Positions 3,078 through 26,528 of a DNA stretch of 64,000 nt are shown here, piece after piece. The translations under genes and the position numbers were made by a program. Below the pieces are notes generated by a model. It was given only the letters and a program-made list of their open reading frames with translations. It was not told the origin of the DNA and did no database searches. This DNA is from Alloacidobacterium sp. (GTDB lineage Bacteria > Acidobacteriota > Terriglobia > Terriglobales > Acidobacteriaceae). Location: the NCBI GenBank assembly GCA_035482895.1, contig DATHQH010000061.1, forward strand, positions 96-64,095. The letters run 5' to 3'. The first letter of the stretch is position 1. Each line of letters begins with the position of its first letter.

Positions 3078-3106
3078 CTAATGGAAAGTAGCAAGGGGTA
3101 CCAACA

Positions 3107-3370: not shown

Positions 3371-3500
3371 AGATTCGGGCATTCACTTTACCTATTTCTC
3401 GTTGTGTTATTTCCGATAAGCACGTAATGAATGGTTGAAATCAGTCATGTGACTGACATGGGCGAAGCCCGCCCGCAACACGAAGGACTGCAATAGGAAT

Positions 3501-4049: not shown

Positions 4050-4102
4050 CAGTCAGCGACCACCGGCTTGTGCCTTTACAGCTCCCCCAGAGAGCGATAT
4101 GC

Positions 4103-5398: not shown

Positions 5399-5464
5399 AG
5401 ATCGAGATTAGAACTGGAACACTAAACCGCGATCAGACCTTAGCAGGCGCAGCAAATATTCCCG

Positions 5465-6655: not shown

Positions 6656-6726
6656 ACACCTGCCCACTGCAACATATATCTCACACGAACCGATCGCTCA
6701 CACGTGACATCAAGAGGTTCTCTCTT

Positions 6727-7725: not shown

Positions 7726-7822
7726 CATGGACCACAGATTCTGCAACCTTGCACTCGATAGCTGACACAAGAATCCCCCGACACTGGATGAATAACGACC
7801 AGATACTAAGGAACCCATCACA

Positions 7823-10057
7823 ATGTACATGACCCCGGTGAATCCTCAAGAAGCACGCAGCGCTTCTACCACCCCTCAGCTGCCGCTTCGTCCTTCCCCA
7901 AAAGGGCCCTTTTTTCGAATCAATGTGCTCGGAAGTCTGCGACTGCATGCAGTTGCGGCTGTTCTTGTCGCCCTTGTCGTTCTTGGTCTCGGTCTTGCTA
8001 TTCTTCTGCGTCGAGGAGTTAGCTATGTTACCGAAAGCACTGTCTATGTATCGCCAACCTTCCCGAAAACGCTCAATGACGATCGTGAGCAGGAATACCC
8101 GTACGACTCGTATGTGCAGCAGCAGGTGCACTCCATCACCCGCTATGACGTGATGGAAGATGCGCTTCATAAGCTTCCGCCGGGGATGTGGAAGCTTACA
8201 AAGGAGACAGATCGGGCCGCGATCGAACGATTGCAGAAGGCTCTCGATATCAAACGTGTAGGTCTGACGTATCAGGTTTCGATCACGCTCCATGGTTCGA
8301 CACCCGACCATCTCGCCGATATCGTAAATGCTATTACACAATCCTATTTGGCCAAGACAAAGAATGAGGAATTCTACGGCCGCGATGAGCGTCTCTCAAC
8401 ACTGCGTGACACGCGCGATGATCTGCGCAAGGAGCTCGACACACGCATCGAGGAGCTATCCGGCATTACGGAAACTCTTGGAATGGCCAAGGTAGGCACT
8501 GAGGGTCCTAACCCCTTTGACGACCAGCTTTCAAAAATGCGCGCTGACCTGACAGCTGCTCATAATCAGCGTGTTCAGGCTGAGGCAGAGTTGTCATCAT
8601 TGAAAAACAGCGATCCCTCGGTTCCGAATGCGGCCTTGAATGCTGCGGCCGATGAATTGATAGCGAGTGACCCTGGGCTGCTGGCTATGAAAGCAGACCT
8701 GGCGAAGAAGCGGAGTGCCCTGGTAGAGCAGCTCAGCACCCTTACGCCAAATCATCCGCTGCGCAAACAGACCGAAGATCAGTTGTCTCAAATTAATCAG
8801 ACGCTACAAGATATGCAGACGGATTTGCGCCGCAAGGCAGCCGCTCGTCTTGAAACCAAGAACCGTGCAGAGTTCAATCGGACTTCGACGATCGAAGCAA
8901 AACTGCTGAGCGACTTACAGCAAGAGACAAAAGCCGCGACATCAGCTGCTCCGAAACTGCAGCGCGCAGAAGAGCTGAAGGCTGAGATTACTCGTCTTCA
9001 AACACGTTATGCCGAAGTCGATGACCGAATCAGCAATTTGGAGCTTGAAAGCAGCTCTCCTGGGTCGATCCATCTATTCGCTGCAGCTCTGCCTCCGACC
9101 GGACCCGAATCAAGTAAATTCCGCCTTTTGATACTTGCGCTTTTTCCAGTCTCAATCTTGTGCGGAATCGGAACTGCTGTGGCCCTGGATATCTTCGATC
9201 CATACGTTCACACCGGAAGCGATATAGAGGCTCTCCTGGGATTTGCACCCATTGGTGTGCTGCTGAACGATCGTGACATCACGCAGCGAGTCTTTGACGA
9301 GTGCTCACTTCGGCTCGCTGCTGGAGTCGATCACGCTGTCCGCAGCGCAGGAGCGCGCACATTCGTGGTGACAAGCGTGGGAAGTGGTGCAGGAACAACA
9401 TCGATTGTTCAGACTATGGGCAGCACGCTGGCGCGACTTGGCCACAAAACCTTAACCATCGATGCGTCCGGTCATACAGAACCTATCGCTTACGTAACGA
9501 TGGGAATCCATGACAGCGTGGCTGGATCAGGTCATGAATCTCACTTCGAAAGCGCGGATCATTTTCAGTCGATGTCGTCGGTACCTCTGCAAACATCGGC
9601 AATTTTTTCTCAGCCTTCATCTTTGAGCAAAGCACCTCTATATAGTTTTGCTGCAAAAACTTTCCAGAAGCTGACTTCCGAATACGACGTAATTCTCATG
9701 GATACGGCGCCATTGCTCATCTCGGCTGAAACGGAATATCTTGTACGCGCGGCAGACGTCACCATTCTCGTGGCAGAAGCCGGTAAGACCAGCAAGCGCA
9801 AGTTGACCCGCTGCGCCCGCCTGCTTGAGCGGCTCGATGTAGCCGGTGTAGCCGCCGTCATCAACAAAGTTCGCTTGCTTCGCGCGGAAACCGATCTGCG
9901 ACACGATTTGCAGGAATCGGAGGCGCGCCTGAATGAGACGAATCTGAGATGGCGTTCGCATCGCAGTCCCGATCATGCCTCGGTGTCGCCGTTCGAATCA
10001 ACACCGGAGGAATCGATGGAAAGTGAAGCAGCCGCCTTTGCAACAAGCAGCAGATAG
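7823..10057 (+). CDS. Polysaccharide co-polymerase / Wzc-like chain-length determinant with degenerate P-loop ATPase domain
   Basis: The Wzz-type N-terminus has a TM helix, a long coiled-coil periplasmic region and a second TM. The C-terminal P-loop domain has VVTSVGSGAGTTS where BY-kinases have GxxxxGK(S/T). Walker A'-like (ILMDTAPL) and Walker B-like (VTILVAEAGKTS) segments are present, and the tail contains no tyrosines. Confidence 0.85.
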   Translation: MYMTPVNPQEARSASTTPQLPLRPSPKGPFFRINVLGSLRLHAVAAVLVALVVLGLGLAILLRRGVSYVTESTVYVSPTFPKTLNDDREQEYPYDSYVQQQVHSITRYDVMEDALHKLPPGMWKLTKETDRAAIERLQKALDIKRVGLTYQVSITLHGSTPDHLADIVNAITQSYLAKTKNEEFYGRDERLSTLRDTRDDLRKELDTRIEELSGITETLGMAKVGTEGPNPFDDQLSKMRADLTAAHNQRVQAEAELSSLKNSDPSVPNAALNAAADELIASDPGLLAMKADLAKKRSALVEQLSTLTPNHPLRKQTEDQLSQINQTLQDMQTDLRRKAAARLETKNRAEFNRTSTIEAKLLSDLQQETKAATSAAPKLQRAEELKAEITRLQTRYAEVDDRISNLELESSSPGSIHLFAAALPPTGPESSKFRLLILALFPVSILCGIGTAVALDIFDPYVHTGSDIEALLGFAPIGVLLNDRDITQRVFDECSLRLAAGVDHAVRSAGARTFVVTSVGSGAGTTSIVQTMGSTLARLGHKTLTIDASGHTEPIAYVTMGIHDSVAGSGHESHFESADHFQSMSSVPLQTSAIFSQPSSLSKAPLYSFAAKTFQKLTSEYDVILMDTAPLLISAETEYLVRAADVTILVAEAGKTSKRKLTRCARLLERLDVAGVAAVINKVRLLRAETDLRHDLQESEARLNETNLRWRSHRSPDHASVSPFESTPEESMESEAAAFATSSR

Positions 10058-10157
10058 CAACATCAACGGTGATGTAACAGGCACGACTCTTACATCACCG
10101 CGGAAATATATAAGCTATTCAGACCATTACGATTCTTTGCTGAAAAGTCTGTCTCCA

Positions 10158-13100
10158 ATGCACAAAGAAAATAAATTGAATTCAAACTCTGCGCGGCAAT
10201 TCGATGCAAAGCAGTACAACCATTCGAATTCAGAGCAAAAGGCCGCACTCGAAGTATCGATCGCGAAACTTTGGCAAGAATTGCTTGGTCTGCCGAGCGT
10301 CGGTCTCGAAGACAATTTCTTCGAGATGGGTGGCACATCCTTAATTGCTACAGTGCTGCTCACAAAACTAAACCAGGCACTGAACTTGAGTCTCCCTATC
10401 GCAGCCGTCTTTGAATATCCGACCGTGCGTGCCATGACAGAATTCCTGAGCGACAAGGACAACTTTGGGGTGGAAGAAATTGTCCAGTCCACGCCGCGCA
10501 AGCAGATTGACAAGTCGAATACATCCTCTGCAATCGCCATCATCGGCATGACCGGGCGCTTTCCAGGGGCGGAATCTGTCGAGGACTTCTGGGCGAATCT
10601 CTGTAATGGAGTGGAATCCATTTCTTTCTTCGACCAGGAAGAATTGGAATCGCAGGAGCGGTTCACTGGCTTGGCACCCAACTATGTTGCAGCCCGGCCC
10701 ATTCTCCAAAACACGGCGATGTTCGATGCGGACTTCTTCGGAATTTATCCCAAGGAAGCTGAACAGATGGATCCGCAACACCGCGTATTCCTCGAGTGTG
10801 CATGGGAAGTTCTTGAACGCGCGGGATATGATCCGGCGCACACAAAAGACGCGGTAGGAGTTTTCGCCGGATGCAGCATGAATACCTACTTCATGCACAA
10901 CCTGGCTGCAAATCGAAGCTTCCTCGAAACTTTTACCGGCGGGTATCAGGTCGGCTCATACGTAACGATGCTCGGCAACGACAAGGATTTTCTGCCTACA
11001 CGCGTCTCCTACAAACTGAACTTGCGTGGCCCCAGCATCAACGTCCAAACTGCTTGCTCTACGTCACTGGTCGCGGTTTGCCAGGCGTGCCAAAGTCTAT
11101 TAACTGACGGCTGCGACATGGCGCTCGCAGGGGCCGTATCCATTACTTTTCCCGAACGACGCGGCTACATTCCACAGGAAGGTGGGATCGTCTCAGAAGA
11201 CGGTCATTGCCGTCCATTCGACCATCGTGCTACTGGAACCGTCTTCGGATCAGGTGCGGCCATTTTATTGCTGAAGCGACTGGATGACGCCATTGCCGAC
11301 GGCGATCAAGTGCTCGCCGTCATCCGCGGTTTCGCGTTAAACAACGATGGTTCCAATAAAGTTGGCTACACCGCGCCGAGTGTTGAAGGTCAGTCCCAGG
11401 TCATTCTACGGGCTCAACAGATGGCGGGAGTCACAGCTGACTCCATCTCCTATATTGAGGCACATGGAACGGCCACACCGCTTGGCGACCCTATTGAAGT
11501 TGCAGCACTAGCAAAAGCATTCAGCAAGTCCACACATGCCCGGCAATTCTGCTCCATCGGCACAGCCAAGGCGAATGTTGGCCATCTGGATGTCGCCGCA
11601 GGAGCTACTGGGCTGATCAAAACCGTATTACAGATCGAAAATCGCACCATTCCTAAGCTGCTTCATTTTGAAAAGCCGAATCCTCATCTGGATCTGAACA
11701 ACACTCCGTTTAAGGTTGCCCAAAATACTCAGCCATGGAAAACAGACAGCCTGCCACTCCGTGCAGGCGTGAGTGCCTTTGGTATGGGCGGAACAAACGC
11801 TCACGTCATCGTTGAAGAAGCCCCAGTTCCCACTCTTTCTGACCAGGGACGCGCACATCAGCTGCTGCTTTGCTCAGCGAAAACGCCAACCGCTCTTACA
11901 ACGATGACCAATGATCTTGCACATTTCTTCGCAACGCAATCAGATGTCAATCTCGCCGACGCAGCCTATACACTCCAGACTGGACGCAGTCGCCACAAGC
12001 ACCGTAGTGCGCTTGTCGCAAGCAGCGCAGAGGAAGTATCGGAAGCGCTCAAGAAACAAAGCAGTGAAATTCTGCGCGAAGACACACCTTTAGAAAATCC
12101 ATCCATCGTCTTTTGCTTTCCCGGCCAGGGTGTGCAGGCGGTGAATATGGGGCGCAAGCTGTATGAGTCCGAGCCGGTTTTCCGGCAAGTGATGGATGAA
12201 TGCAACACCATCCTGCGACCGCTACTTGGCGAGAACCTCCTCGATCTTCTCTACTCCTCTGAAACTGCAACAGACGCAGCGGCGCGCCTGAATGAAACAG
12301 CATACGCGCAGCCGGCGATCTTCGCATTTGAATACGCATTGGCGCAGCTCTGGCTCTCATGGGGAATCTGTCCGGACGCGATGGTTGGCCATAGCATTGG
12401 CGAGTATGTGGCGATGTGCATTGCCGGAGTCTTCTCACTTGAAGATGCCCTGCGACTCATCGCCGTGCGCGGACGATTTATGCAGAAGATGCCGCGTGGC
12501 TCTATGTTGAGTGTGCGCGCCAGTCAGGAAAGAGTTGTCGCGTTGATAGGCAATGATCTTGACCTCGCGGCTGTCAATGGACCACAACTCTGCGTAGTCT
12601 CGGGCCCGGATGACGCCATCGCAGCATTCGCTGCGAAGCTTGATGGGCAAGGAATCGTTCATCGCAAGTTGGCCACATCACACGCCTTCCATAGCCGTAT
12701 GGTGGACCCTGCCCTCGCTCCGTTCGCGGAGTTTGTGCGGGGTATCGTTTTCGGAGCACCAACAATTCCATGCGTTTCCACTCTGACAGGGAAATGGATC
12801 ACAGGACAGGAAGTCGCGCATCCCGAATACTGGACGCGTCAATTGAGAAGCACAGTACGGTTTGCCGACGCCATTCGCGAACTGGCACGCACGCCAGAAC
12901 GAATCTTTCTCGAAGTCGGACCCGCTGAAACGCTTGTGCAACTCATTCGTCCGACAATGAATGAGAAAAGCACCGTGAAAGCGAATGCACACATCGCGCT
13001 TGCTTCGCTGCCTTCGGTACGCGACGGGGTTTCTGAAGATAAAGCCATCCTGAACACGCTTGGACGTCTCTGGCTGTCAGGTGCCACTCCAGATTGGAAC

Positions 13101-16100
13101 ACTTTTCATGCAGGCTACATGCGCAAACGCATCCTGCTGCCAACATATCCTTTTGAGCGAAAAAGATTTTGGGTAGCACCTCCGCGAATTCCAACTTTGC
13201 CCCCGACAACCTATGCAGTGACAGCTCCAGTAGAAGAGGAACAACACCCGATGACCACACCGGTTGCCAACGGTTCTGCAATGTTGAATGAGCTTCAGCT
13301 TCTTATTACCGACCTCTCTGGTATCGATCTCGCAGGTGCCGATCCAGAATCGTCTTTCCTTGAGCTTGGATTTGACTCTCTCTTTCTGACGCAATTGACA
13401 CAGGCAATTCAGGGAAAATACCGCTTAAAACTTACTTTTCGTCAGATCATGGAGAACTATCCTACTCTGAGAGCACTCACAGCGCATCTTGAGGCAAATG
13501 TAACGCCTGAGCTACGCACGGCTGCACCGAGCAATGTGGCGCCTCCCGCACAGATTGCAGCGACGACGAGCGTTCCGGCACTGCTCGCTGCGGCTGCACC
13601 GCTTATCACTCCCACTGGCACTATGGAGGCGCTCTTCACCGCGCAGATGCAGGCTTTGACCGGTCTCTTCCAGCAGCAGTTAGCCATACTTGGTGCGTCA
13701 CAGCTGGACTCTGCACCCGCGTCGCTTTCGATTCAAACTAAGACACAACAAGTTGTTCCATCTAAAGCGATTTCTCCTGCTACGACGGCAACTACAGCTG
13801 CTTCGTCCCCAACGTTTGACGACAAGCCGACGAAGCCAGTCTTTACGCCATTCAAGCCGTTGCAGCTCAGCGACGACAATAAGCTAAACGCTGTACAAGA
13901 AAAATACCTTAGCGACTTCATTCATCACTACAATCAGCGCAGCTCTCGTTCGAAGAAGTTTACGCAGGAACACCGCAAGGTATTTGCCGATGGCCGCGTC
14001 GTATCGGGATTCAATGCACAGATCAAGGACCTCATCTATCCGCTGGTTGTAGATCGCGCCAAAGGTTCGTATCTGTGGGACAAAGACGGCAACCGTTACA
14101 TCGATATTTTGAATGGCTATGGAGCCATCCTCTTTGGCCACTCGCCCGATTTTCTTGTGGATGCAGTGCATAAGCAGCTGGATTTGGGTTTTGCCATCGG
14201 ACCGCAAACTGAGCTTGCCGGCGAATGTGCAGGGTTGGTGCACGATCTCACGGGAATGGAGCGGGTTACTTTCTGCAACACAGGCTCTGAGGCGGTTATG
14301 GGAGCCATGCGTCTGGCACGCACTGTCACCGGCCGCAACCTGATTGTGCTCTTCTCCGGTGACTATCATGGCAGTTTTGATGAAGTGCTGGTAAAAGCTG
14401 TAGGCGGCCACCGCTCGATGCCGGTCGCACCAGGCATTCCACGTGAAAGCGTCGCGAACATTCTTGTGCTCGACTACGGCACGCCGGAAAGTCTTGAAAT
14501 CATTCGCCAGCGCGCCCATGAGCTTGCTGCAGTTCTCGTCGAGCCGGTACAGAGCCGCCATCCCGATCTCCGCCCCGCAGAATTCCTAAAGGAGGTCCGT
14601 CGCATCACCCAGCAAAATGGAACCGCGCTCATCTTCGATGAAGTGGTCACCGGCTTCCGCACACACCCTGGAGGCATGCAGGCTGTCTATGGCATCCAGG
14701 CGGACCTGGCAACCTATGGCAAAGTTGTAGCGGGCGGCCTGCCTGTCGGCGTGCTCGCCGGAAGTTCGGCCTTCATGGACGCGCTCGACGGAGGCATGTG
14801 GCAGTACGGTGATTCGTCTTTCCCCGAAGCGGGCGTTACTTTCTACGCGGGAACCTTCATGAGGCACCCGCTGGCACTTGCCGGTGTGCGCGCTTGCCTG
14901 CAACACATCAAGAAAGAAGGTCATGGACTGCAAGAGCGACTTGCCACCAAGACTGCAAGCCTCGTGCATGACATTCAGGGCATGCTGAAGGATTTTTCCC
15001 ATCCGTCCTCAATCGAGACATATTCGTCGTGGTTCTATCTGCCTGCAGCAACCGACCCCTTCCTCACCCGCATGCTGCATTTCCATCTGCGCGAGCAGGG
15101 CGTGCATATTCAGGAAGGTTTTCCCTGCTTTCTGACAACTGCACATTCGGACGCAGACTTCGACTTTGTTCGCGAAGCCTTTCACAGCAGCTTGCGGGCG
15201 ATGCGTGCTGGGCAAGCGCTACCACAACCCACAGGTACACTGAGTACATTAGAAGAGCCAGCCGCAGCACAATCTGCTTCGTTGGAGACTGCGACCCGTT
15301 CTATTCCGATCACCGAAGCGCAACGCGAAATCCTTCTTGGAGCGCAGCTCGGAGACGACGCGAATTGCTCCTTCAATGAATCGACTTCGCTAGCGCTCAA
15401 GGGCAAATTAAATGAACGGGCATTGATAAGCGGGCTTGAACAGCTCGTTCAACGCCATGACTCTTTGCGTCTCAATTTTGATATGGGCAGCGAGACCGCC
15501 GTTGTCGCTCCGTCAGCTGCAATCAAGGTGGAACGCCACGACCTAAGTCAGCTTTCCGCAAAAGAAAGAGCGGCACAGCATCAGGCCCTCATCGATCAGG
15601 AGAGTTCAACGCCTTTCGATTTAGTGCACGGACCCTTGTTCCGGATTCATTTGATCCGTCTGGCTGCTGATGAACATGTTGTCCTCTTCACGGCGCACCA
15701 CATCATTTTTGACGGCTGGTCGACAAATGTATTCTTTAACGAACTGAGCGATCTCTATAACGCAACGGTAAACGGACATAAGACCAATCTCCCCATTCCC
15801 ATTACCTTCACCCAATTCGCTATCGACCAGCGCGAGCACGTGGCGAATGACAATTGTCGCACCACGGAGACCTTTTGGATGGAGCAGTTCGACACCACAC
15901 CGTTGCCCTTGCAAATCCCTACGGACAGACCGCGTACCACCGTGCGCAGCCATGAAGGCGCAACAAACCGCTACGTTTTTGATAGCGAATTATTCCAAGC
16001 CGTCCGCAAAGCCGGCGCACGCCAGGGCAGCACGTTATTCGCTACATTGCTTGCCGCCTTTGCCCAACTGATCCATCGTCTTTCAGAGCAGGACGACGTC

Positions 16101-18533
16101 GTGATCGGCATCCCGATGGCGGGGCAGTCGAAAATAAACAACGGATCGACGCTTGTTGGACACTGCGTCAACTTCCTGCCGATTCGCAGCCGACTGTTGG
16201 CAGATCAAACGCTTGCTGACTTTCTGAAGCAAACACGCAAGATGCTACTCGATGCCTATGATCATCAGGACTATACATATGGCACGCTGCTACACAAACT
16301 CAAACTGCCACGCGATCCCTCTCGTCCAGGGCTGATTGAAGTTCAGGCGAATGTAGAACAGGTAGGGGCAAGTCTTTCTTTCGATGGGCTATCAGCCGAT
16401 CTTCGCTCCAACGGAAAAAAACATGTCAACATGGATCTGTTCTTCAACTTCGTCGACCGTGGCGCCGAGCTTTGGTTGGAGTGCGACTATAATACTGGCC
16501 TTTTTGACAGTGCAACGATTGACCGCTGGTTCGGGCACCTAAACGCCATACTGCAGGCGTTTGCTCAGGATCTGACACAACCCTGCACTGACGTTTCACT
16601 GTTGACACGGATGCAACAGCAGGAAATTCTTGTTGACTGGAATCGAACATCTACGGACTATCCTCGTAACAATTCCATCCATCGAATCTTTGAACAACAG
16701 GTCATTCAAACACCTGACTCGATTGCACTGATCGCAGGCAAACACAACCTAACCTATGCGGAGATCAACGAAAAAGCCAATCAGCTCGCTCACTATCTCA
16801 TCCGCGCAGGCATCCGGCCTGGCGCGCGCGTGGCGCTCTGCGCAGATCGCTCAGCGGAAGTCATCGTAAGCCTGCTGGCTATACTTAAAACTGGGGCTGC
16901 CTACGTCCCGATCGATCCGAGTTACCCGGCGCAGCGCCTTATATATCTCATCAGCGACTCGGCAGCAAAGATACTGCTCACACGTAGCACGATCGCTGAC
17001 AAGCTGCCGCAACTCGATACGAACGTCCTTTTGCTGGATCAGGAGTGGCCGACAATCGCTCTTGAAAGCAGCTCTAATCTTTCTCATGATGGCCACGCAG
17101 AAGATCTCGCGTACGTCATGTACACCTCCGGCTCTACGGGAAATCCAAAAGGTGTTCTGGTGCCGCATCGCGCGATTGCTCGCCTGGTCAAAAACAATTC
17201 TTTTGCCAGCTTTAGCGCAGATGAGGTGTTTCTGCAGCTCGCACCTCTATCATTCGACGCAGCCACTTTTGAAATCTGGGGAGCATTCCTCAATGGTGGA
17301 CGCCTGGTATTGGCCACTGGCGAACGGATAACACCGGAAGACATTGGACTCCATATCAAGGAGCATGGCGTTACAACGCTTTGGCTTACCGCCGCGCTAT
17401 TCCATCTCATCGCCACAGAGCACATCGAAATTTTGCGTCCGTTGCGTCAATTGCTTGCCGGCGGTGACGTACTGTCTCTCACCCATGTGCGCCGTGTCTG
17501 TGAGCAACTGCCTCACTTAAAGCTCATCAATGGATATGGGCCGACGGAAAACACCACGTTCACTTGCTGTCACACCGTTACGCTTGAAAGTACTACCGCG
17601 GGCACTGTGCCAATTGGAAGACCTATTGCAAATACCCGCATATATATTCTCGATTCGAATATGCGGCCAGTACCTCCAGGCGCGACCGGAGAGCTGTATG
17701 CTGCAGGCGATGGACTTGCCTTGGGTTATTTGAATGCTTCAGAACTAACCGCAGCAAAGTTCATCGACCACATATTCACCAATGACTGCTCAGAGCGCCT
17801 CTATCGCACCGGAGACCTTGCCCGATATCGCGCAGACGGCACAATCGAATTTCTTGGCCGCATGGATACACAAGTCAAGATTCGCGGCTATCGCATTGAG
17901 TTGGCCGAAATTGAATATGCGCTCGAACAGTCTCCCAAAGTGCGTTCTGCCGTAGTCGCTGTACGCACGGACTGGGTTACGCCGAATGACACTCCGGGCG
18001 ATAAGCGGCTGGTGGCATATGTCATTCCAGAACAGCCCGGAGACAATAACTCCCTGATGCAGGAACTTCGGCAATATTTGCTGGAGCGTCTGCCGGAATA
18101 TATGCGCCCAGCGGCGATGATGGTTCTGGAAAGCTTTCCGCGGACAGTGAATGGCAAGATCGACCGACGCGCTTTGCCTGCTCCCGTTCCTGAACAACTG
18201 CTGCGCAAAAGGACAATCGTCTACCCACGTAATCAGAATGAAGAAATTCTAGCGGGCATTTGGACGAAAACGCTTGCGTTGAAAGAAGTCGGCGTGGAAG
18301 ACAGCATCTTTGAGCTGGGAGGAGATTCCCTTCTCATCTTCCGCATCACTGCACTTGCCAATCAGGCAGGGCTGAAAGTAAATGCACGACACTTCTTTCA
18401 GCATCGAACAATTGCCGGCATCTGCTCACAACTGGAAGAAACCGCGACGATCTCAGTCAAAGCTAATGCAGTTGCGCCGATCCAAGCAATCCCACGCTCG
18501 CAGTACCGCCAAAAGCTTCAATCACTTAAGTAA
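10158..18533 (+). CDS. Hybrid type I PKS / NRPS: T(PCP-like)-KS-AT-ACP-aminotransferase(class III)-C-A-T
   Basis: Motifs read from the translation:
- Carrier FFEMGGTSL, Ser codon 10338-10340.
- KS: IAIIGMTGRFPG, TACSTS (Cys 11055-11057), EAHGTATPLGDP, NVGHLD.
- AT: GQGVQ, GHSIGE (Ser 12393-12395), HAFH (malonyl type).
- ACP: LGFDSLFL (Ser 13377-13379).
- PLP aminotransferase: NTGSEAVMGAMRLAR, FDEVVTGFR, YGKVVAGG (Lys 14721-14723).
- C: HHIIFDGWS (15696..).
- A: YTSGSTGNPKGV, NGYGPTE, GELYAAGDGLALGY, YRTGDLARY, GRMDTQVKIRGYRIELAEIE, NGKIDR.
- PCP: FELGGDSLL.
The start is uncertain. The track ORF begins at 9975, overlapping the upstream gene by 83 nt; 10158 is the first downstream ATG. Confidence 0.93.
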   Translation: MHKENKLNSNSARQFDAKQYNHSNSEQKAALEVSIAKLWQELLGLPSVGLEDNFFEMGGTSLIATVLLTKLNQALNLSLPIAAVFEYPTVRAMTEFLSDKDNFGVEEIVQSTPRKQIDKSNTSSAIAIIGMTGRFPGAESVEDFWANLCNGVESISFFDQEELESQERFTGLAPNYVAARPILQNTAMFDADFFGIYPKEAEQMDPQHRVFLECAWEVLERAGYDPAHTKDAVGVFAGCSMNTYFMHNLAANRSFLETFTGGYQVGSYVTMLGNDKDFLPTRVSYKLNLRGPSINVQTACSTSLVAVCQACQSLLTDGCDMALAGAVSITFPERRGYIPQEGGIVSEDGHCRPFDHRATGTVFGSGAAILLLKRLDDAIADGDQVLAVIRGFALNNDGSNKVGYTAPSVEGQSQVILRAQQMAGVTADSISYIEAHGTATPLGDPIEVAALAKAFSKSTHARQFCSIGTAKANVGHLDVAAGATGLIKTVLQIENRTIPKLLHFEKPNPHLDLNNTPFKVAQNTQPWKTDSLPLRAGVSAFGMGGTNAHVIVEEAPVPTLSDQGRAHQLLLCSAKTPTALTTMTNDLAHFFATQSDVNLADAAYTLQTGRSRHKHRSALVASSAEEVSEALKKQSSEILREDTPLENPSIVFCFPGQGVQAVNMGRKLYESEPVFRQVMDECNTILRPLLGENLLDLLYSSETATDAAARLNETAYAQPAIFAFEYALAQLWLSWGICPDAMVGHSIGEYVAMCIAGVFSLEDALRLIAVRGRFMQKMPRGSMLSVRASQERVVALIGNDLDLAAVNGPQLCVVSGPDDAIAAFAAKLDGQGIVHRKLATSHAFHSRMVDPALAPFAEFVRGIVFGAPTIPCVSTLTGKWITGQEVAHPEYWTRQLRSTVRFADAIRELARTPERIFLEVGPAETLVQLIRPTMNEKSTVKANAHIALASLPSVRDGVSEDKAILNTLGRLWLSGATPDWNTFHAGYMRKRILLPTYPFERKRFWVAPPRIPTLPPTTYAVTAPVEEEQHPMTTPVANGSAMLNELQLLITDLSGIDLAGADPESSFLELGFDSLFLTQLTQAIQGKYRLKLTFRQIMENYPTLRALTAHLEANVTPELRTAAPSNVAPPAQIAATTSVPALLAAAAPLITPTGTMEALFTAQMQALTGLFQQQLAILGASQLDSAPASLSIQTKTQQVVPSKAISPATTATTAASSPTFDDKPTKPVFTPFKPLQLSDDNKLNAVQEKYLSDFIHHYNQRSSRSKKFTQEHRKVFADGRVVSGFNAQIKDLIYPLVVDRAKGSYLWDKDGNRYIDILNGYGAILFGHSPDFLVDAVHKQLDLGFAIGPQTELAGECAGLVHDLTGMERVTFCNTGSEAVMGAMRLARTVTGRNLIVLFSGDYHGSFDEVLVKAVGGHRSMPVAPGIPRESVANILVLDYGTPESLEIIRQRAHELAAVLVEPVQSRHPDLRPAEFLKEVRRITQQNGTALIFDEVVTGFRTHPGGMQAVYGIQADLATYGKVVAGGLPVGVLAGSSAFMDALDGGMWQYGDSSFPEAGVTFYAGTFMRHPLALAGVRACLQHIKKEGHGLQERLATKTASLVHDIQGMLKDFSHPSSIETYSSWFYLPAATDPFLTRMLHFHLREQGVHIQEGFPCFLTTAHSDADFDFVREAFHSSLRAMRAGQALPQPTGTLSTLEEPAAAQSASLETATRSIPITEAQREILLGAQLGDDANCSFNESTSLALKGKLNERALISGLEQLVQRHDSLRLNFDMGSETAVVAPSAAIKVERHDLSQLSAKERAAQHQALIDQESSTPFDLVHGPLFRIHLIRLAADEHVVLFTAHHIIFDGWSTNVFFNELSDLYNATVNGHKTNLPIPITFTQFAIDQREHVANDNCRTTETFWMEQFDTTPLPLQIPTDRPRTTVRSHEGATNRYVFDSELFQAVRKAGARQGSTLFATLLAAFAQLIHRLSEQDDVVIGIPMAGQSKINNGSTLVGHCVNFLPIRSRLLADQTLADFLKQTRKMLLDAYDHQDYTYGTLLHKLKLPRDPSRPGLIEVQANVEQVGASLSFDGLSADLRSNGKKHVNMDLFFNFVDRGAELWLECDYNTGLFDSATIDRWFGHLNAILQAFAQDLTQPCTDVSLLTRMQQQEILVDWNRTSTDYPRNNSIHRIFEQQVIQTPDSIALIAGKHNLTYAEINEKANQLAHYLIRAGIRPGARVALCADRSAEVIVSLLAILKTGAAYVPIDPSYPAQRLIYLISDSAAKILLTRSTIADKLPQLDTNVLLLDQEWPTIALESSSNLSHDGHAEDLAYVMYTSGSTGNPKGVLVPHRAIARLVKNNSFASFSADEVFLQLAPLSFDAATFEIWGAFLNGGRLVLATGERITPEDIGLHIKEHGVTTLWLTAALFHLIATEHIEILRPLRQLLAGGDVLSLTHVRRVCEQLPHLKLINGYGPTENTTFTCCHTVTLESTTAGTVPIGRPIANTRIYILDSNMRPVPPGATGELYAAGDGLALGYLNASELTAAKFIDHIFTNDCSERLYRTGDLARYRADGTIEFLGRMDTQVKIRGYRIELAEIEYALEQSPKVRSAVVAVRTDWVTPNDTPGDKRLVAYVIPEQPGDNNSLMQELRQYLLERLPEYMRPAAMMVLESFPRTVNGKIDRRALPAPVPEQLLRKRTIVYPRNQNEEILAGIWTKTLALKEVGVEDSIFELGGDSLLIFRITALANQAGLKVNARHFFQHRTIAGICSQLEETATISVKANAVAPIQAIPRSQYRQKLQSLK

Positions 18534-18538
18534 GCAAC

Positions 18539-21500
18539 ATGGACCGACAATTGATGTCCGCTGATCATGAAGAGCTCACTCCAAAGGCTGGACCCATGAC
18601 CCTACCCGTGCAAGATGCTTCAGCAGAAATACCACAAAAAACTGAGGATGTGTATCTCTTCCCCGCTAGCTTGGAGCAGCATCGTTACTGGATTTTAGAT
18701 CAGGTCGACCAGGCTTCTACGGCTTCCAACATGGCCATCACTTTTCGCCTTGTTGGAGAGATAGATGACATATTGGCGGAGAAAAGTATTTGTGCGCTTA
18801 CTTTGCGTCACGAAGCGCTACGCACAACATTCAGAATGATCGATGGTGCTCTCAATCAGGTCATCTCAGAAGAGCCGCTCTATCATTTTTCTGTATCCGA
18901 TCTCAGGATTCTTCCCAAAGAAGAGCGCTCAGAACAGGCGGAGAAGATCATTCGTGAGCATAGTCATGTCGCGATGAATCTGGCTACGGGGCCGCTCTTC
19001 TTCGCGCGTCTTATTCACGTAAGCGATCAGGATCACTTTCTCGCCTGCACCATGCACCATATTGTGTGTGACGGGTGGTCGAATGGAATCCTCGTACGCG
19101 ACTTCGCGGAATTCTACTCCGCATACTCGCAGGATCGTTCGCCCGAACTCGCCGAACTTCCTTTCCAATTTGCCGACTTCACCATTTGGCAAAAAGAATG
19201 GCTGGCCAGCGAAGCGGCCGAAGATGCATTGAATTTTTGGAGAGAACAGATACGGCGTGAGATACCTGCTGTCGATCTGCCTACGGATTATCCGAGAAAT
19301 GCCCGCAAGGATGGTCCAGGCGATATCGAATCCCAGTTGATGCCCCCACCTCTGAACGAGCGGTTGAAAAGGTTTTGCCGCGAGCGGGGGACGACAAACC
19401 ACCAGGTTCTACTGGCCGTTTTTCAATGCCTTATTTCACGCTACACCAGCCAGGAGCAATTTCTACTCGGCTCAAGTATTGCAAACCGCACTCAGGCGGG
19501 AATGGATCATGTGGTAGGCCGCTTTGCGAATCCTCAGGTCATCCTCGCAGACGTTTCCGGCAATCCAGGTTTTGATGAGTTGCTCCATCGCGTAGTTGAG
19601 TGGACAACCTCTGCCTACGCGCATCAGGATTTGCCTTTTTCGCGTCTTATGGAAGAGTTTCAGCTTGATCAGAGTGGCGCAACATCGCAGTTTTTACAGA
19701 TCTACTTTGTTTATCAGAAAGCCTTCATGCAGCCCCAGAATGCTGGGGCATTGCAAGTTGCTCCCCGTCCTTCCGTGAGCGGCGGCGTCAATTTCGATCT
19801 TTTAGTCAGCATTGTGGAGCGCGCTGAAGGCCCAAGGATGCAGATCGAGTACAACACCGATCTTTTCAAACGAGAGCGCATACGGAAGTTTATTCAGCAA
19901 TACATTCGTGTACTCGCTTCTGTTCTGGATGCGCCGGCTTTGAAGATTTCTCAGTTACCCCTTCTTTCATCCGACGAAGAACTGGCCCTGCGTCGAGCCG
20001 GAAGCGGTCCTTCCCTGTCCCGCATTTATTCTTCCTCCCTTGTCGAAGCATTTGATAGACATGCGTCGGCTTTCGGAACGGCCACTGCTGTCATTGCCGG
20101 CGATGCGCGCACTTCATGGAAAGCCCTTGCTGACAAAAGCATTCAGTTTGCATATGCGCTCCAGAACCTGAATATTGAACAAGGCCAAATCGTCGCACTG
20201 CGCATGGAACCCAACTCGGATGCGGCAGCGGCGGCACTTGCAATCTTGCGTATCGGCGCAGTTGCTTTACCGATTCCGGGCTCGACAAGTGCCGACGAGT
20301 GGAAGCGCATGCTTGCCCAACTGGAACCAGCGGCTGTTTTGGCCGGGTCTGAGTTCTCAAGTGATCTTTCATCACTTATTAGCTTCGAAAAATTGAGTAA
20401 ATTGGCACGTCCCCACGGCGATCTACCATCTATTCTCGCCGGGGCTCCTGCATGGTGCGGATTAAGTCTCGACAAGGCTGGCCAGTACCAGACACATATC
20501 GCTACACACGAACAAACCGCTGCCTCTCTGGCTGGTGCTGCCCAGGCGCTTCATCTTACCGCAGGCGATGCTATCGCAATTAGAGCCGCTTCTACGTCAA
20601 CGGATGCGTGGGTTGATTTACTGCTTCCGTTAACCAGCGGAGCAAGCATCTTGCATTTGCATAACGCGACCGACGCTCAACTACAGGCTATTCTTGTCCG
20701 CGAACAAATCAGCTTTGCATGTGCTACCCCCGGGGAATGGCTTGCACTACTTGACAGCGGTTGGTGTGGCGACCGCAGATTGCAGATGATCTGCCGTGGA
20801 GATCGTCTTCCTTCTACGGTGAGCAAACGCTTTGTTCCACTAGGACGTGTCTGGTCACTTATCTCATCCGCCCTGGCCGGCGGTCCCATAAGCGTGGCGT
20901 CACTCGATAAAGAATCCCCGTGTAAGAATCCGGCTAGCCCGCTACCTGGACAGGCATTTACAGTCATTGATGCGTGGGACAACCCTGTCCCTGAAGGCGT
21001 CATTGGCGAGCTGGTGCTGTCGAATGCCGAGACATCGACCAAGACAGGACTTTTGGCTCAATACCCTCTCGGCGGCAGTTTTGAGGTTGTCGACCAAGTG
21101 CGGAATCGGGTACGCCTGCATGGATACCGTTTACGCCTGGGTGAGATTGAAGATCGTCTCATCGCATGCCACGGAGTGGGATATGCGAAGGCAGCAATTC
21201 AGAATGATTCCAGAGAAAGCCTAGCATTAGTTGCTTATATTGCAGGGACGAATGGAACATCTCCTGATGTTGGCGAAGTGAGCCGGCTCCTTCGTTCTTC
21301 CGCTCCCGGCCATCTTGCTTGTGCAGAACTTTTATCAGTAGACAACATTGTTCTCCGCCCGGACGGATCGCCTGACGCTAACTCACTTTCCCAATTTAAT
21401 GTGACCACAACTGATCTGACGAATAGCGAGGATTACATTCCCCCAAGGGATGAGATTGAATCAAGACTTGTCGAAATCTGGGAAGATGTTCTCGGCGTCA

Positions 21501-22510
21501 AGGGTATAGGCATACGAAATAGCTTTTTCACGCTTGGCGGCTATTCGTTAATGATCGTGCGTCTGTTTGCCCGCATCAATAAGGCAATGAATGCTTCTTT
21601 GCCCATTACTACTATTTTTAATGCTCCGACCGTCGAGCAACTGGCGGACATTCTGAGGGGTCGTCGCGCTTACTCTTCCATTGTTCCCGTAAGAACAGAA
21701 GGCACCAAGCCGCCGTTTTTTATGATCCTTTCGTATCTTCTTTATGGATCGCTGCCGGATGCGATTGGGAGTGAATATCCCTTTTATGGATTAAGAGAAT
21801 TGGACGGCGAAAAAACCACGACACCGGAATTGCGGGCGGCCGCATATGTCAAGGCGATTCGCTCCATTCAGCCGCGCGGTCCCTATTACCTGGGCGGGTG
21901 GTGCGCGGCAGGGCCACTTACGATCGAGGTTGGCCGTCAGCTCATGGAAAGTGGACAACAGGTCGGTCTCGTCACCCTGTTTGACTCATGGCACCCTGGA
22001 TATGCGGAGAGACTGAAACAAGAACAAAAAACAGCCGGGATCTCCACACTCAGCGCGAAGCTGCGTCACAGATATATCTTCCACCGCGATAAAATGCGGA
22101 ACCAGACAGCTGCGGGCGGACTTGGTTACCTTCACACTGTTGCCGTGAATAAACTTCGCTCGATGCGTGATGCTGTTTACTTAAAACACTGGTCTGCCAC
22201 AACAAAGGCCTTCAAAACTCTTGGGTTTCCGCTGCCGGACTTTATGCACAACCTCACAGAAACAACGCTTTTATCGCTTCAACGGTACGAACCTCGGCCA
22301 TTTCGCGGCAACGTTATGCTAATGCGCGCGATGAAGGCTCCAAATCTTCCCGGAGCCGACGCCACGTGCGGGTGGAACAAAATAGTCGAAGGAGCCATCG
22401 ATGTCCGATGGGTGCCGGGGGATCACGAAACCATGTTCCTTGAGCCTAATTTAGAGGCCGTTGGCAAGAACCTCCGAGAAAGCCTTGAACAAGCACAGCA
22501 AAGGCTCTGA
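18539..22510 (+). CDS. NRPS termination module: C - degenerate A-like domain - T - thioesterase
   Basis: The C domain has LEQHRYWILDQ and MHHIVCDGWS. The A-like region keeps A4- and A8-like segments (TSGASILHL, VRLHGYRLRLGEIE) but lacks the A3 P-loop, the A5, the A7 Asp and the A10 Lys. PCP is FFTLGGYSLM (Ser 21545-21547). The TE has GGWCAAG (Cys 21902-21904) and GDHETMF. It begins 5 nt after the upstream stop. Confidence 0.9.
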   Translation: MDRQLMSADHEELTPKAGPMTLPVQDASAEIPQKTEDVYLFPASLEQHRYWILDQVDQASTASNMAITFRLVGEIDDILAEKSICALTLRHEALRTTFRMIDGALNQVISEEPLYHFSVSDLRILPKEERSEQAEKIIREHSHVAMNLATGPLFFARLIHVSDQDHFLACTMHHIVCDGWSNGILVRDFAEFYSAYSQDRSPELAELPFQFADFTIWQKEWLASEAAEDALNFWREQIRREIPAVDLPTDYPRNARKDGPGDIESQLMPPPLNERLKRFCRERGTTNHQVLLAVFQCLISRYTSQEQFLLGSSIANRTQAGMDHVVGRFANPQVILADVSGNPGFDELLHRVVEWTTSAYAHQDLPFSRLMEEFQLDQSGATSQFLQIYFVYQKAFMQPQNAGALQVAPRPSVSGGVNFDLLVSIVERAEGPRMQIEYNTDLFKRERIRKFIQQYIRVLASVLDAPALKISQLPLLSSDEELALRRAGSGPSLSRIYSSSLVEAFDRHASAFGTATAVIAGDARTSWKALADKSIQFAYALQNLNIEQGQIVALRMEPNSDAAAAALAILRIGAVALPIPGSTSADEWKRMLAQLEPAAVLAGSEFSSDLSSLISFEKLSKLARPHGDLPSILAGAPAWCGLSLDKAGQYQTHIATHEQTAASLAGAAQALHLTAGDAIAIRAASTSTDAWVDLLLPLTSGASILHLHNATDAQLQAILVREQISFACATPGEWLALLDSGWCGDRRLQMICRGDRLPSTVSKRFVPLGRVWSLISSALAGGPISVASLDKESPCKNPASPLPGQAFTVIDAWDNPVPEGVIGELVLSNAETSTKTGLLAQYPLGGSFEVVDQVRNRVRLHGYRLRLGEIEDRLIACHGVGYAKAAIQNDSRESLALVAYIAGTNGTSPDVGEVSRLLRSSAPGHLACAELLSVDNIVLRPDGSPDANSLSQFNVTTTDLTNSEDYIPPRDEIESRLVEIWEDVLGVKGIGIRNSFFTLGGYSLMIVRLFARINKAMNASLPITTIFNAPTVEQLADILRGRRAYSSIVPVRTEGTKPPFFMILSYLLYGSLPDAIGSEYPFYGLRELDGEKTTTPELRAAAYVKAIRSIQPRGPYYLGGWCAAGPLTIEVGRQLMESGQQVGLVTLFDSWHPGYAERLKQEQKTAGISTLSAKLRHRYIFHRDKMRNQTAAGGLGYLHTVAVNKLRSMRDAVYLKHWSATTKAFKTLGFPLPDFMHNLTETTLLSLQRYEPRPFRGNVMLMRAMKAPNLPGADATCGWNKIVEGAIDVRWVPGDHETMFLEPNLEAVGKNLRESLEQAQQRL

Positions 22511-22534
22511 AACACGGATTTCGAAAGAACATGT

Positions 22535-23359
22535 ATGTTAAAAACACCTCTTGAGAGTCGTGCGAAATGCATCCCAGAATGCGGGCAAAAAAATGCTTAC
22601 GCTCATAACGCGCCGCAACTTTCCGCATCTCTCGGACCCGCGCCTGAATTGACAGAGGGCCATATTCACGTATGGACAGTTTGCAGACTTCCCGGGAGCC
22701 CTTCGAGTTATTTACCGCTTTTGAGCAAAGAAGAATTCGACCGTGCATCGGTCATGCGCTCTCCGGAACTGTTTCATCGATTTGTTGCTGACCATGGCAC
22801 GCTTCGCCTGCTTTTGAGTGCTTATCTTGAAGCAGACCCACAAACGCTTCCACTAGTAGTCGACCATTATGGCAAGCCTGCCCTGAATATTCCGCGTTGC
22901 CGTCTGCGCTTTAACATGTCACATTCAGGCAAGCTTACGATGATTGCTCTTTGCCTCGATTCTGAAATAGGGATCGACGTCGAAGCGATTCGTCCCATTG
23001 TTGAATGGGAAGACATTGCAGCCACGCATTTCTCATCGCATGAGAGAGAGTCTCTTCAAGCGGAAGATCCTAAAGGGCGAGAAAGCGCATTCTTTCGGTG
23101 CTGGACGCGAAAGGAAGCTGTTATCAAGGCCGTTGGAATGGGGCTCTCTATACCTCTCGACAGTTTCACCGTCAATACGTCTCTGACGGAGCCCGCAGCT
23201 TTATTGCACTGTGCATGGGATCCAGAGGCAATTTCGCGCTGGTCTTTAGTTCACCTGGAACCTGCGACCGGCCACGTCGGAGCGCTTGCTGTCCAAGGCG
23301 CAAATTTGTCTGTACAGCAGTTCAACTGGCCATCGGAATACACCGAGAATTATTCCTGA
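22535..23359 (+). CDS. 4'-phosphopantetheinyl transferase (Sfp type)
   Basis: FNMSHSGKLTMIAL, GIDVE and FFRCWTRKEAVIKAVG are hallmarks of PPTase family II. The gene lies 24 nt downstream of the NRPS. Confidence 0.85.
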   Translation: MLKTPLESRAKCIPECGQKNAYAHNAPQLSASLGPAPELTEGHIHVWTVCRLPGSPSSYLPLLSKEEFDRASVMRSPELFHRFVADHGTLRLLLSAYLEADPQTLPLVVDHYGKPALNIPRCRLRFNMSHSGKLTMIALCLDSEIGIDVEAIRPIVEWEDIAATHFSSHERESLQAEDPKGRESAFFRCWTRKEAVIKAVGMGLSIPLDSFTVNTSLTEPAALLHCAWDPEAISRWSLVHLEPATGHVGALAVQGANLSVQQFNWPSEYTENYS

Positions 23360-23478
23360 TGCCACGGTCCCACTCGTGCTCTGTGATAGGTATCACGCGA
23401 CACAACCTGTAATCAGATACATATCTATAGTTTGGACTCATAACGCAATGCAGCTAGCTCGTTGAAGCTGTTCCTATC

Positions 23479-24861: not shown

Positions 24862-24926
24862 CAGAGACAATCTCGCTCTTTAATCTGTAACAAGCCGATG
24901 TTCAATGACGTTTTATAAGGGAACTG

Positions 24927-26318: not shown

Positions 26319-26528
26319 CGAATCCGCCTTCGAATTTAGTTGCAATAATTTCCTCGTTTTGCTCGCAATGACAGCTAGATAACACTTACAGTCGATCTGT
26401 TTTTAAATGGGCAGATTGTTTCGAGTATGCCTTTCCTCTCAAACTGCACAACGGGTTTATTCGTCGCTTCTAACACGATCGCCTGGATCACTGTCTCAGC
26501 CGAACGATAACTCATTGGAGATAAGTAA

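Follow-up and report, generated by a model that had tools for sequence, protein, structure and literature searches.

What would a peptide-polyketide assembly line be doing in the middle of an exopolysaccharide gene run? The question is raised by a 64,000-nucleotide stretch of Alloacidobacterium sp. (Terriglobales, Acidobacteriaceae; assembly GCA_035482895.1, contig DATHQH010000061.1), called here the window, in which a peptide-polyketide synthase cassette is nested in a Wzx/Wzy-type exopolysaccharide (EPS) gene run. The cassette consists of a hybrid of polyketide synthase (PKS) with nonribosomal peptide synthetase (NRPS), a second synthase (NRPS2), and a 4'-phosphopantetheinyl transferase (PPTase). 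In kind it is a polysaccharide locus that contains an acyl pathway dependent on carrier proteins, which here takes the form of a PKS-NRPS assembly line. Our tentative answer, drawn from gene content and comparison of related loci, is that the synthases and PPTase may serve as an accessory cassette making an acyl-peptide substituent of the EPS repeat unit or polymer.

Synthase genes within an exopolysaccharide gene run

The list of open reading frames (ORFs) and scans with Pfam and NCBIfam models give positions 3107-27683 as a single run of genes on the plus strand. Their order is helix-turn-helix (HTH) protein, UpxY-type NusG paralog, WecG-STAS, GT2, Wza, Wzc-like protein, hybrid synthase, NRPS2, PPTase, Wzy, Wzx and GT4, where GT denotes a glycosyltransferase. 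The features of the run and of the region before it are:

1082-2596, minus strand: sigma-54-dependent activator (bacterial enhancer-binding protein), divergent to the operon (Pfam Sigma54_activat 2.4e-64, and HTH_8)
3063-3078, plus strand: sigma-54-type promoter TGGCACAGCGATTGCC with -24/-12 elements, one mismatch to TGGCAC-N5-TTGCW
3107-3370, plus strand: small protein of 87 aa with an HTH_3 domain, encoded by the ORF that opens the run (Pfam HTH_3 8.7e-08)
3501-4049, plus strand: NusG paralog of the UpxY family, an operon-specific antiterminator (NF033644, 108.5 bits against a cutoff of 100)
3965-5398, plus strand: WecG/TagA-family glycosyltransferase fused to a C-terminal STAS domain (Pfam Glyco_tran_WecG 1.3e-66, and STAS)
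5465-6655, plus strand: GT2 glycosyltransferase, EpsU-like (domain scans)
6652-7725, plus strand: outer-membrane polysaccharide export protein (OPX), Wza type (Poly_export and SLBB)
7823-10057, plus strand: Wzc-like polysaccharide co-polymerase, 744 aa, with a degenerate kinase-like domain (weak eps_fam, EpsF and CBP_BcsQ matches)
10067-10099, plus strand: stable hairpin in the wzc-synthase gap (folding energy -29.4 kcal/mol, z = -3.4; 11 bp, without a U tract)
10158-18533, plus strand: hybrid synthase (the ORF opens at 9975; 2852 aa) (Pfam)
18539-22510, plus strand: NRPS2, 1323 aa (Pfam)
22535-23359, plus strand: PPTase of Sfp/HetI type (ACPS 6.4e-18)
23479-24861, plus strand: Wzy-type polymerase (Wzy_C, 36.9 bits against a cutoff of 31.7)
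24927-26318, plus strand: Wzx, MOP-family flippase (Polysacc_synt_3 5.7e-43)
26529-27683, plus strand: GT4 glycosyltransferase, last gene of the run (domain scan)

An initial annotation of the sequence had proposed that the synthases and PPTase are nested with tight junctions in a Wzx/Wzy-type EPS run, and the ORF list and domain scans agree with it. The five central ORFs (7823-10057, 9975-18533, 18539-22510, 22535-23359 and 23479-24861, all on the plus strand) lie where it had placed them, Pfam reproduces its domain order for both megasynthases and the PPTase, and its junctions are exact: 5 nt between the synthases, 24 nt from synthase to PPTase and 119 nt from PPTase to wzy. It had also noted correctly that wzc and the first synthase either overlap by 83 nt (ATG 9975) or are separated by 100 nt (ATG 10158). 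The 9975 start is unlikely: orthologs align only from about residue 43-90, and residues 1-61 of the longer ORF, rich in Arg, merely translate the 3' end of wzc, so the true start is probably ATG 10158.

The genes around the synthases include most of what defines a Wzx/Wzy-dependent locus, namely Wzx and Wzy genes with an OPX protein (Wza) and a co-polymerase (Wzc); the initiating transferase is the missing element. Wzx scores 114 bits with the NCBIfam model for MOP flippases, below its cutoff. The WecG-STAS fusion is present in every related locus, and the STAS domain joined to this WecG/TagA glycosyltransferase is anti-sigma-antagonist-like. The gene that had been called wzc-like does encode a Wzc-like co-polymerase, but one lacking the Walker A lysine and Tyr-rich tail of the bacterial tyrosine kinases (BY-kinases). 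BY-kinase Wzc proteins (class PCP-2a) have a Walker A motif GxxxxGK(S/T) and a C-terminal tyrosine cluster. Here the Walker A motif reads GSGAGTTS, with G-T-T invariant in five orthologs, and there is no Tyr among the last 60 residues; from these residues the protein is probably a pseudo-kinase co-polymerase.

Neither terminator-like nor sigma-70-like sites are commoner in the run than in shuffled sequence, and none falls at a junction. Intrinsic terminators and sigma-70 promoters flanking the synthases were therefore rejected, and the earlier statement that no terminator is recognisable within 3107..27683 holds. The hairpin at 10067-10099 was rejected as a terminator because it has no U tract and is not kept in the close relatives L020 and L021 (related loci are given L numbers here). 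Two other loci, L016 and L017, have a short GC-rich hairpin right after the wzc stop. A second sigma-54 promoter before the synthases was likewise rejected, since the nearest matches (9897 and 10079) lack the invariant GG or GC.

The signals at the head of the run are conserved. The sigma-54 activator gene keeps its position in relatives, and of 19 related loci 17 have TGGCAC-N5-TTGC in the stretch that separates it from the operon, nine of them as an exact match. The NusG paralog is the second ORF past the promoter, at the head of the polysaccharide operon, and scores below the cutoffs of the RfaH and LoaP models. UpxY-type paralogs were detected in L015-L017, L019-L021, L027 and L029, and L015-L017 have an ORF of 73-87 aa at the position of the HTH_3 gene. 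A conserved sigma-54 promoter and a UpxY-type antiterminator at the run head fit one long transcript, and from them we infer a single sigma-54-driven transcript across the run. UpxY in Bacteroides capsule operons and LoaP in Bacillus polyketide operons are also NusG paralogs that head very long operons and aid read-through. The window differs in belonging to the Acidobacteriota and in its sigma-54-type promoter, and its operon would join polysaccharide genes with an assembly line, cargoes that UpxY and LoaP serve separately.

Conservation and replacement of the cassette after wzc

Relatives were sought by a scan of one genome per species with NRPS2, in a large protein database, by a metagenome scan with a Wzc alignment, and by look-up of Wza relatives. 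The one-genome-per-species scan gave nine orthologous loci, all from Acidobacteriaceae/Terriglobales. In the large protein database the NRPS2 family has at least 120 clusters at 90% identity, 43-99% identical to the window protein; named sources are Paracidobacterium acidisoli, Silvibacterium bohemicum, S. dinghuense, S. acidisoli, Acidicapsa ligni and Alloacidobacterium. We found Wzc followed directly by the hybrid synthase and then NRPS2 in 22 distinct Terriglobales loci, and the Wzc-synthase adjacency is kept down to 33% Wzc and 43% NRPS2 identity. In the nine loci where the two genes are called next to each other, wzc and the synthase gene lie 24-217 nt apart; L013 has a small VanZ-like gene between the two. 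No synthase ortholog was found outside the post-wzc position in these scans. The recurrence in 22 independent loci argues that the arrangement is not chance adjacency, and the nesting after wzc, described by the initial annotation from a single stretch, is conserved in related Terriglobales, with downstream genes that vary.

The conserved upstream block comprises the divergent sigma-54 activator, HTH_3 protein, NusG paralog, WecG-STAS, sometimes Wzy, then GT2, Wza and Wzc. Downstream of NRPS2, the order PPTase-Wzy-Wzx-GT4 is found in the window, L001, L002 and L008, while an AT3 membrane acyltransferase (with or without PPTase), a 320-aa protein and GT4 follow in L003, L004, L006, L013, L014, L059 and L060. 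The AT3 gene (PF01757) comes directly after NRPS2 or the PPTase gene in 8 of the 15 synthase-positive loci with enough downstream sequence, and is absent from four synthase-negative loci where the 320-aa protein follows Wzc. PPTase is in or beside the cassette in 10 of 15 loci. The third downstream order, in L009, is GT4, AT3, FkbH-like protein, MBOAT and Wzy. Its FkbH_N-like protein and MBOAT (DltB/AlgI-type) acyltransferase genes (L009:12869-17673) lie between the synthases and wzy, and are a further hint of acyl transfer from carrier protein to polymer.

What follows Wzc is not always the synthase cassette. The head block, made up of activator, WecG-STAS, GT2, Wza and Wzc, stays the same across loci, and after it come the synthase cassette, the 320-aa protein (unk320) with GT4, GT2b, or a second cassette. 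The head block occurs without synthases in L018, L026, L031, L033, L035, L038, L040, L042, L051 and L055. According to the initial annotation, its proposal would fail if relatives carried the same EPS locus without the synthases and made an identical polymer. Such relatives do exist; their polymers, however, need not be identical, because most of them hold a different cassette, based on an acyl carrier protein (ACP), at the site. Wzc is followed directly by the 320-aa protein and GT4 in L018, L038, L040 and L051, and in P. acidisoli, among others, the synthase cassette precedes these two. Since the same 320-aa protein and GT4 genes follow either Wzc or the cassette, the cassette behaves as an insert or deletion between fixed neighbours.

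The second cassette was found in nine synthase-negative loci (L018, L031, L032, L033, L035, L037, L040, L051 and L055) and in no synthase-positive locus within the DNA examined for each. Its genes specify a protein of the PF14518 family (Haem_oxygenas_2-like), a pair of alpha/beta hydrolases, an ACP of 81 aa, an AMP-ligase, a FabG-like short-chain dehydrogenase/reductase, a long-chain acyl-CoA synthetase and a pyridoxal-phosphate decarboxylase. The 320-aa soluble proteins form a family of 52-80% identity, with the motif LLDPDLYFPN (DxD-like) and no Pfam or NCBIfam match; they always stand beside GT4 and are absent from the window. Coordinates in representative loci are:

L018:16038-20913: second cassette
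L033:10100-18223: second cassette
L051:14984-21500: second cassette
L003:16920-17906: about 320-aa protein
L004:16475-17455: about 320-aa protein
L006:16504-17523: about 320-aa protein
L009:10392-11351: about 320-aa protein
L013:19358-20311: about 320-aa protein
L014:15484-16485: about 320-aa protein
L018:13339-14292: about 320-aa protein

The history of the site was read from a neighbour-joining tree of Wzc with 60 bootstrap replicates. Locus types interleave: those with the second cassette form two clades, each beside synthase-positive loci. The key split is present in 60 of 60 bootstrap trees, and a single split separating the two cassette types in none (0/60). If the Wzc tree tracks locus history, the interleaving implies at least two cassette swaps at one site.

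This history bears on whether the cassette belongs to the EPS pathway at all, or is a secondary-metabolite cluster foreign to that pathway, which settled in a variable region prone to recombination and was inherited without functional link. Variable regions of polysaccharide loci are hot spots of gene exchange, this cassette is dispensable for the locus, and the composition of its genes could suit a foreign origin: G+C is 0.51-0.55 in the synthase genes, 0.48-0.52 in the neighbouring EPS genes and 0.56-0.61 in the rest of the window (by region, 0.48-0.55 over the EPS locus, 1-37000, against 0.56-0.61 over 44000-64000). A passenger would hardly be expected to stay next to wzc through divergence to 33-50% protein identity while the downstream genes were repeatedly reshuffled. 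It would also have to account for the tight same-strand junctions without promoter or terminator signal, the replacement at least twice by a second carrier-protein cassette at the same site, and the lack of any copy elsewhere in the scans. We consider it very improbable.

The second cassette resembles a known gene set, the 'exosortase A system-associated' families (TIGR03098, TIGR03100, TIGR03101) of PEP-CTERM EPS loci, which are likewise a carrier-protein acyl pathway inside an EPS locus; a distant version of that set fills the synthase-cassette site in the nine loci. It differs from the window cassette in consisting of discrete small enzymes rather than an assembly line, its model matches here are below cutoff, and the window has no exosortase. 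The ACP/ligase set is not mentioned in the text of Haft 2006 (PMC1569441). Membership of the window locus in an exosortase/PEP-CTERM system was rejected, since there was no exosortase match in the window and every model score was below cutoff: TIGR03007 reached 36.7 against 279, the Wza-type protein 116.7 bits against 180 with TIGR03027, and the sigma-54 activator 266 bits against 502-503 with PEP_resp_reg (TIGR02915).

The assembly line and its predicted product

The hybrid synthase has the layout PCP-KS-AT-ACP-AMT-C-A(Val)-PCP, with peptidyl carrier protein (PCP), ketosynthase (KS), acyltransferase (AT), aminotransferase (AMT), condensation (C) and adenylation (A) domains; the layout of NRPS2 is C-A°-PCP-TE, with a degenerate adenylation domain, A°, and a thioesterase (TE). 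The domains on which the predicted chemistry turns are:

14040-15005, plus strand: class III aminotransferase (AMT) domain of the hybrid synthase (Aminotran_3 6.3e-49)
16689-18158, plus strand: adenylation domain A1, intact (AMP-binding and AMP-binding_C; every core motif present)
20051-21418, plus strand: A°, degenerate adenylation domain without motifs A3 (P-loop), A5 (YGPTE) and A7 (Y(R/K)TGD)
21836-22471, plus strand: thioesterase with Cys nucleophile (GGWCAAG), Asp and His (motif reading)

Pfam matches along the hybrid synthase are, in order, PP-binding (residues 96-158), KS, AT, PP-binding, Aminotran_3 (1356-1677), Condensation (1776-2219), AMP-binding (2239-2728) and PP-binding. The N-terminal carrier has the motif GGTS, the ACP GFDS and the C-terminal carrier GGDS; the KS has Cys361, HGTAT and NVGH, the AT has GHSIG and HAFH with a malonyl signature, the AMT lysine is present in YGKVVAGG, and C1 reads HHIIFDG. 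Alignment of A1 to GrsA-PheA gave the Stachelhaus code DAFWLGGTFK, which is a Val code by published codes, in line with the Val-containing substituents that the initial annotation had in view. The T domain that it placed at the N-terminus is also present. We correct its type: its best matches are peptidyl carriers (PvdL, LgrA, TycC, and the A-PCP of McyG), not polyketide ACPs. The hybrid synthase of L013 has no N-terminal PCP.

NRPS2 gives Pfam matches to Condensation (residues 42-481), a partial AMP-binding domain (505-604), PP-binding (976-1038) and Thioesterase (1100-1311). Its C2 domain is elongation-C-like (HHIVCDG) and its carrier, T2, has the motif GGYS. The domain written A* in the initial annotation is adenylation-derived, as supposed, but degenerate, and inactive by motif loss: besides the motifs listed above, the A10 Lys is replaced, with DGSPD in its place. 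These losses are common to all nine orthologs examined. Mean pairwise identity among orthologs is 39-44% in A°, against 70% in C2, 79% in T2 and 56% in TE, and by this measure A° is a conserved but decaying relic within a protein whose C2, T2 and TE are kept by selection. Some relatives have an extra paralog of NRPS2 with a (partial C)-A-PCP-TE(Cys) layout and an intact A domain of Gly-like code, approximately DIMQFGLIYK (L013:14156-17467, L047:71-1606 and L025:14-1558). It follows NRPS2 in L013, lies at the other edge of the locus in L047 and L025, and is not found in the window; its intact A domain shows the ancestry of A°.

KS, AT, AMT, C1, A1, C2 and TE keep their catalytic residues, and the three carrier serines are likewise in place. 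With A° degenerate, A1 is the only intact adenylation domain in the locus, and the ORFs of the 64-kb window hold no AMP-binding domain other than these two. A fatty acyl-AMP ligase or other adenylation enzyme that might load the N-terminal PCP or T2 was sought in the window and none was found. A1 would thus charge both T1 and T2, and possibly the N-terminal PCP too. Read in this way, the domains predict a beta-amino-acyl-Val(-Val) product.

This chemistry is that of the MycA type. MycA/ItuA, McyE, the puwainaphycin synthetase (PMC4219810) and CplA (PMC8313283) likewise combine KS-(AT)-ACP, a class III AMT and C-A-PCP in one protein, converting a beta-keto to a beta-amino acyl group that is condensed with an amino acid. 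Those of the MycA/ItuA type begin with an acyl-AMP or acyl-CoA ligase, or have an adjacent gene for a fatty acyl-AMP ligase, and continue in multi-module NRPSs to a cyclic lipoheptapeptide. The window synthase opens instead with a PCP-type carrier and has its AT in cis. It continues with one further module, for two in all, of which the second has a dead A domain and a Cys TE, and its genes are inside an EPS operon.

The adjoining PPTase is of Sfp type (PF01648, 65.2 bits against a cutoff of 25), and its best NCBIfam match is HetI, at 134.8 bits, below the cutoff of 370.

The TE raises another account of the product. Its best match in PDB is AB3403 of Acinetobacter baumannii (ABBFA_003403; PDB 4zxh/4zxi), which shares the C-A-PCP-TE layout (1320 aa, against 1323 aa for NRPS2) and a Cys nucleophile in the common pattern GGWC.(G/A)G, reading GGWCFGG in AB3403. 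AB3403 comes from the A1S_0112-0119 cluster, the source of the lipopeptide Ac-505, and both biofilm and surface motility depend on that cluster (PMC5376624). AB3403 differs in having an active A domain where the window counterpart is degenerate, and its cluster is outside polysaccharide operons. The window product could by analogy be a small lipopeptide, secreted free or inserted in the membrane as biosurfactant, signal or matrix component, and co-regulated with EPS without being bonded to the glycan. The likeness of its TE and module layout to those of a biofilm-linked cluster is the best support for this alternative (PMC5376624); moreover, thioesterase domains normally hydrolyse or cyclise, the EPS locus occurs without the cassette, and co-regulation alone would account for the operon layout. 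Co-regulation alone explains poorly, however, the confinement to the post-wzc site in 22 loci and the mutual exclusion with the ACP cassette, and a glycan-type AT3 acyltransferase accompanies the synthases in 8 of 15 loci. Export is a further difficulty for a free product. In Acinetobacter the cluster includes a ligase, an ACP and an efflux pump of its own, whereas Pfam scans found no exporter gene inside the synthase cassette. On balance we think a free lipopeptide less likely than a substituent role, though a rival to be taken seriously.

Role of the cassette and setting of the locus

The stretch of a polysaccharide locus that separates its export genes from wzy, wzx and glycosyltransferase genes encodes polymer-specific chemistry. 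The cassette, itself carrier-protein-dependent, occupies just this variable part of a conserved Wzx/Wzy EPS operon. The argument for an EPS role is that two carrier-protein acyl pathways replace each other there, that the synthase cassette comes without an exporter, and that AT3 often follows it; use of the product by the EPS pathway is thus a positional and evolutionary argument from comparative genomics.

The substituent pathway that we tentatively propose would run as follows. Transcription would start from the sigma-54 promoter at about 3063-3078 under the divergent activator, with the UpxY-type paralog aiding passage through some 24 kb to GT4. An acyl or aminoacyl starter would be loaded in trans onto the N-terminal PCP, extended by the KS with malonate supplied by the cis-AT, and given a beta-amino group in place of the beta-keto group by the AMT. 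C1 would couple this beta-amino unit to A1-activated Val. T2 would most likely also be charged by A1, giving a beta-amino-acyl-Val-Val unit, because C2, T2 and TE are constrained although the A domain of their module is dead. The Cys-thioesterase would then off-load the unit, which would be attached as an N- or O-acyl-peptide substituent to the lipid-linked repeat unit or to the polymer, through transfer by the TE itself or, in many relatives, via the AT3 protein encoded right after the synthases. The modified unit would be flipped by Wzx, polymerised by Wzy and exported by Wzc/Wza. A broader form of the proposal, in which assembly lines act as EPS tailoring enzymes and chemotypes are diversified by swapping with the ACP/ligase cassette after wzc, is possible but more doubtful.

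Several observations weigh against a substituent role. The head block occurs without synthases, which makes the EPS machinery independent of them, and the window's own variant has no AT3 acyltransferase. In scans of the window, neither an amino-sugar pathway within the operon nor an enzyme to load the N-terminal PCP was found, and no acidobacterial EPS is known to contain Val or beta-amino acids. The kinship of the TE to AB3403 suggests simple release of a free product. As to one transcript, the UpxY-type paralog was not detected in some synthase-positive loci, e.g., L034 and L047, and some wzc-synthase gaps contain hairpins. The hydrolases of the second cassette have only 'exosortase A system-associated' NCBIfam matches (TIGR03100, TIGR03101), which are below cutoff, and we know of no test of function for the exosortase-associated ACP/ligase families. 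Finally, no Bac_transf or Glycos_transf_4 match, and hence no initiating phosphoglycosyl transferase of WbaP/PglC or WecA type, was found among the scanned window ORFs; some relatives have a Bac_transf gene nearby.

The missing initiating transferase would also suit a different role, in which the product is a lipid that primes or anchors the polymer at its reducing end, or a glycolipopeptide with a sugar part built by Wzx/Wzy, so that the synthase sets the start of the polymer or its hold on the cell. A long acyl chain could be the starter on the N-terminal PCP, and there are precedents in other systems. WcbR/RkpA genes belong to capsule loci of the ABC-transporter (Kps) type, and a lipid is their presumed product. 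Like the window cassette, these genes of Burkholderia and Sinorhizobium stand among genes for polysaccharide synthesis and export and encode a type I KS-AT-ACP megasynthase; type I PKSs are known from capsule loci (PMC3908369). They differ in that WcbR/RkpA proteins are mono-modular and PKS- or fatty acid synthase-like, without AMT or NRPS modules (PMC3908369). The window protein has no ketoreductase, dehydratase or enoylreductase, has AMT and NRPS modules with Val, and is in a Wzx/Wzy locus.

A nearer precedent is carenaemin of Collimonas arenae Cal35, which is made by a PKS-NRPS with KS/AT and aminotransferase and is a Wzx/Wzy-dependent product (PMC8313283). Its authors propose that the peptide is coupled to a lipid-linked oligosaccharide before flipping, with export by the flippase (PMC8313283); a requirement for both PKS-NRPS and Wzx/Wzy loci, with peptide-oligosaccharide attachment, is what the glycolipopeptide alternative would lead one to expect. 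For carenaemin the two gene sets occupy different places on the chromosome, and its synthase is built of more modules (PMC8313283). The acidobacterial synthases, known here from genes alone, are nested between wzc and wzy in one run, family-wide. An anchor or glycolipopeptide sits poorly with the PCP type of the N-terminal carrier and the lack of a fatty acyl-AMP ligase in the locus. WecG/TagA enzymes normally use undecaprenyl diphosphate-linked GlcNAc, which would imply a standard undecaprenyl primer, and synthase-negative relatives retain Wzy, Wzx, Wza and Wzc. We hold this role to be improbable.

The initial annotation knew of no characterised Wzx/Wzy EPS locus with an embedded module of this type. 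We found no published paper describing an acidobacterial wzc-PKS-NRPS-wzy locus, although carenaemin (PMC8313283) and WcbR/RkpA (PMC3908369) soften the claim of no precedent. None of the nearest precedents has an assembly line nested between wzc and wzy.

Genes beyond the run include further EPS genes and a large convergent gene:

27677-32809, minus strand: secreted-looking protein of 1710 aa, convergent to the run, with legume-lectin and chitobiase C-terminal (CHB_HEX_C) domains and a signal-like segment at its N-terminus
33123-36042, plus strand: GT4, GT2 and hexapeptide acyltransferase, further EPS genes (domain scan)

The end of the GT4 gene overlaps the convergent lectin-domain gene by 7 nt. 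Homologs of the lectin-domain protein flank synthase-positive and synthase-negative loci alike, and it therefore belongs to the EPS locus, not the cassette. In relatives, homologs of the GT2 and hexapeptide acyltransferase adjoin the sigma-54 activator gene. The remainder of the window is unrelated, encoding Nramp, an MgtE-like protein, DegT, three MacB/FtsX permeases, malic enzyme, SLT, an extracytoplasmic function (ECF) sigma factor and DsbD. The permeases are three tandem MacB_PCD/FtsX-type paralogs of 897, 882 and 881 aa (44107-52244), and an RsbW-like kinase and STAS pair is found at 39294-40185.

Acidobacteriaceae are among the most abundant bacteria of soil and peat, and soil aggregation, desiccation tolerance and metal binding are attributed to their EPS, while the genetics and fine chemistry of the polymers are little charted. 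Comparison of the loci indicates that the PKS-NRPS pathway is family-wide and interchangeable with a cassette of discrete enzymes. If the proposed role is true, this would be the first bacterial exopolysaccharide decorated by a megasynthase, and one sigma-54/UpxY-driven transcript would unite glycan and assembly-line genes. A product that ends on the polymer would represent a new route of polysaccharide decoration, by an assembly line rather than single acyltransferases, with the two alternative cassettes at one site as a natural experiment. It would also give a reason why genome mining counts an acidobacterial 'PKS-NRPS cluster' that never yields an antibiotic. The locus is carried by four cultured species, S. 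bohemicum, S. dinghuense, P. acidisoli and A. ligni, and so is directly testable. Should the product instead be a free lipopeptide, the locus would still show a conserved genetic coupling of lipopeptide to EPS export.

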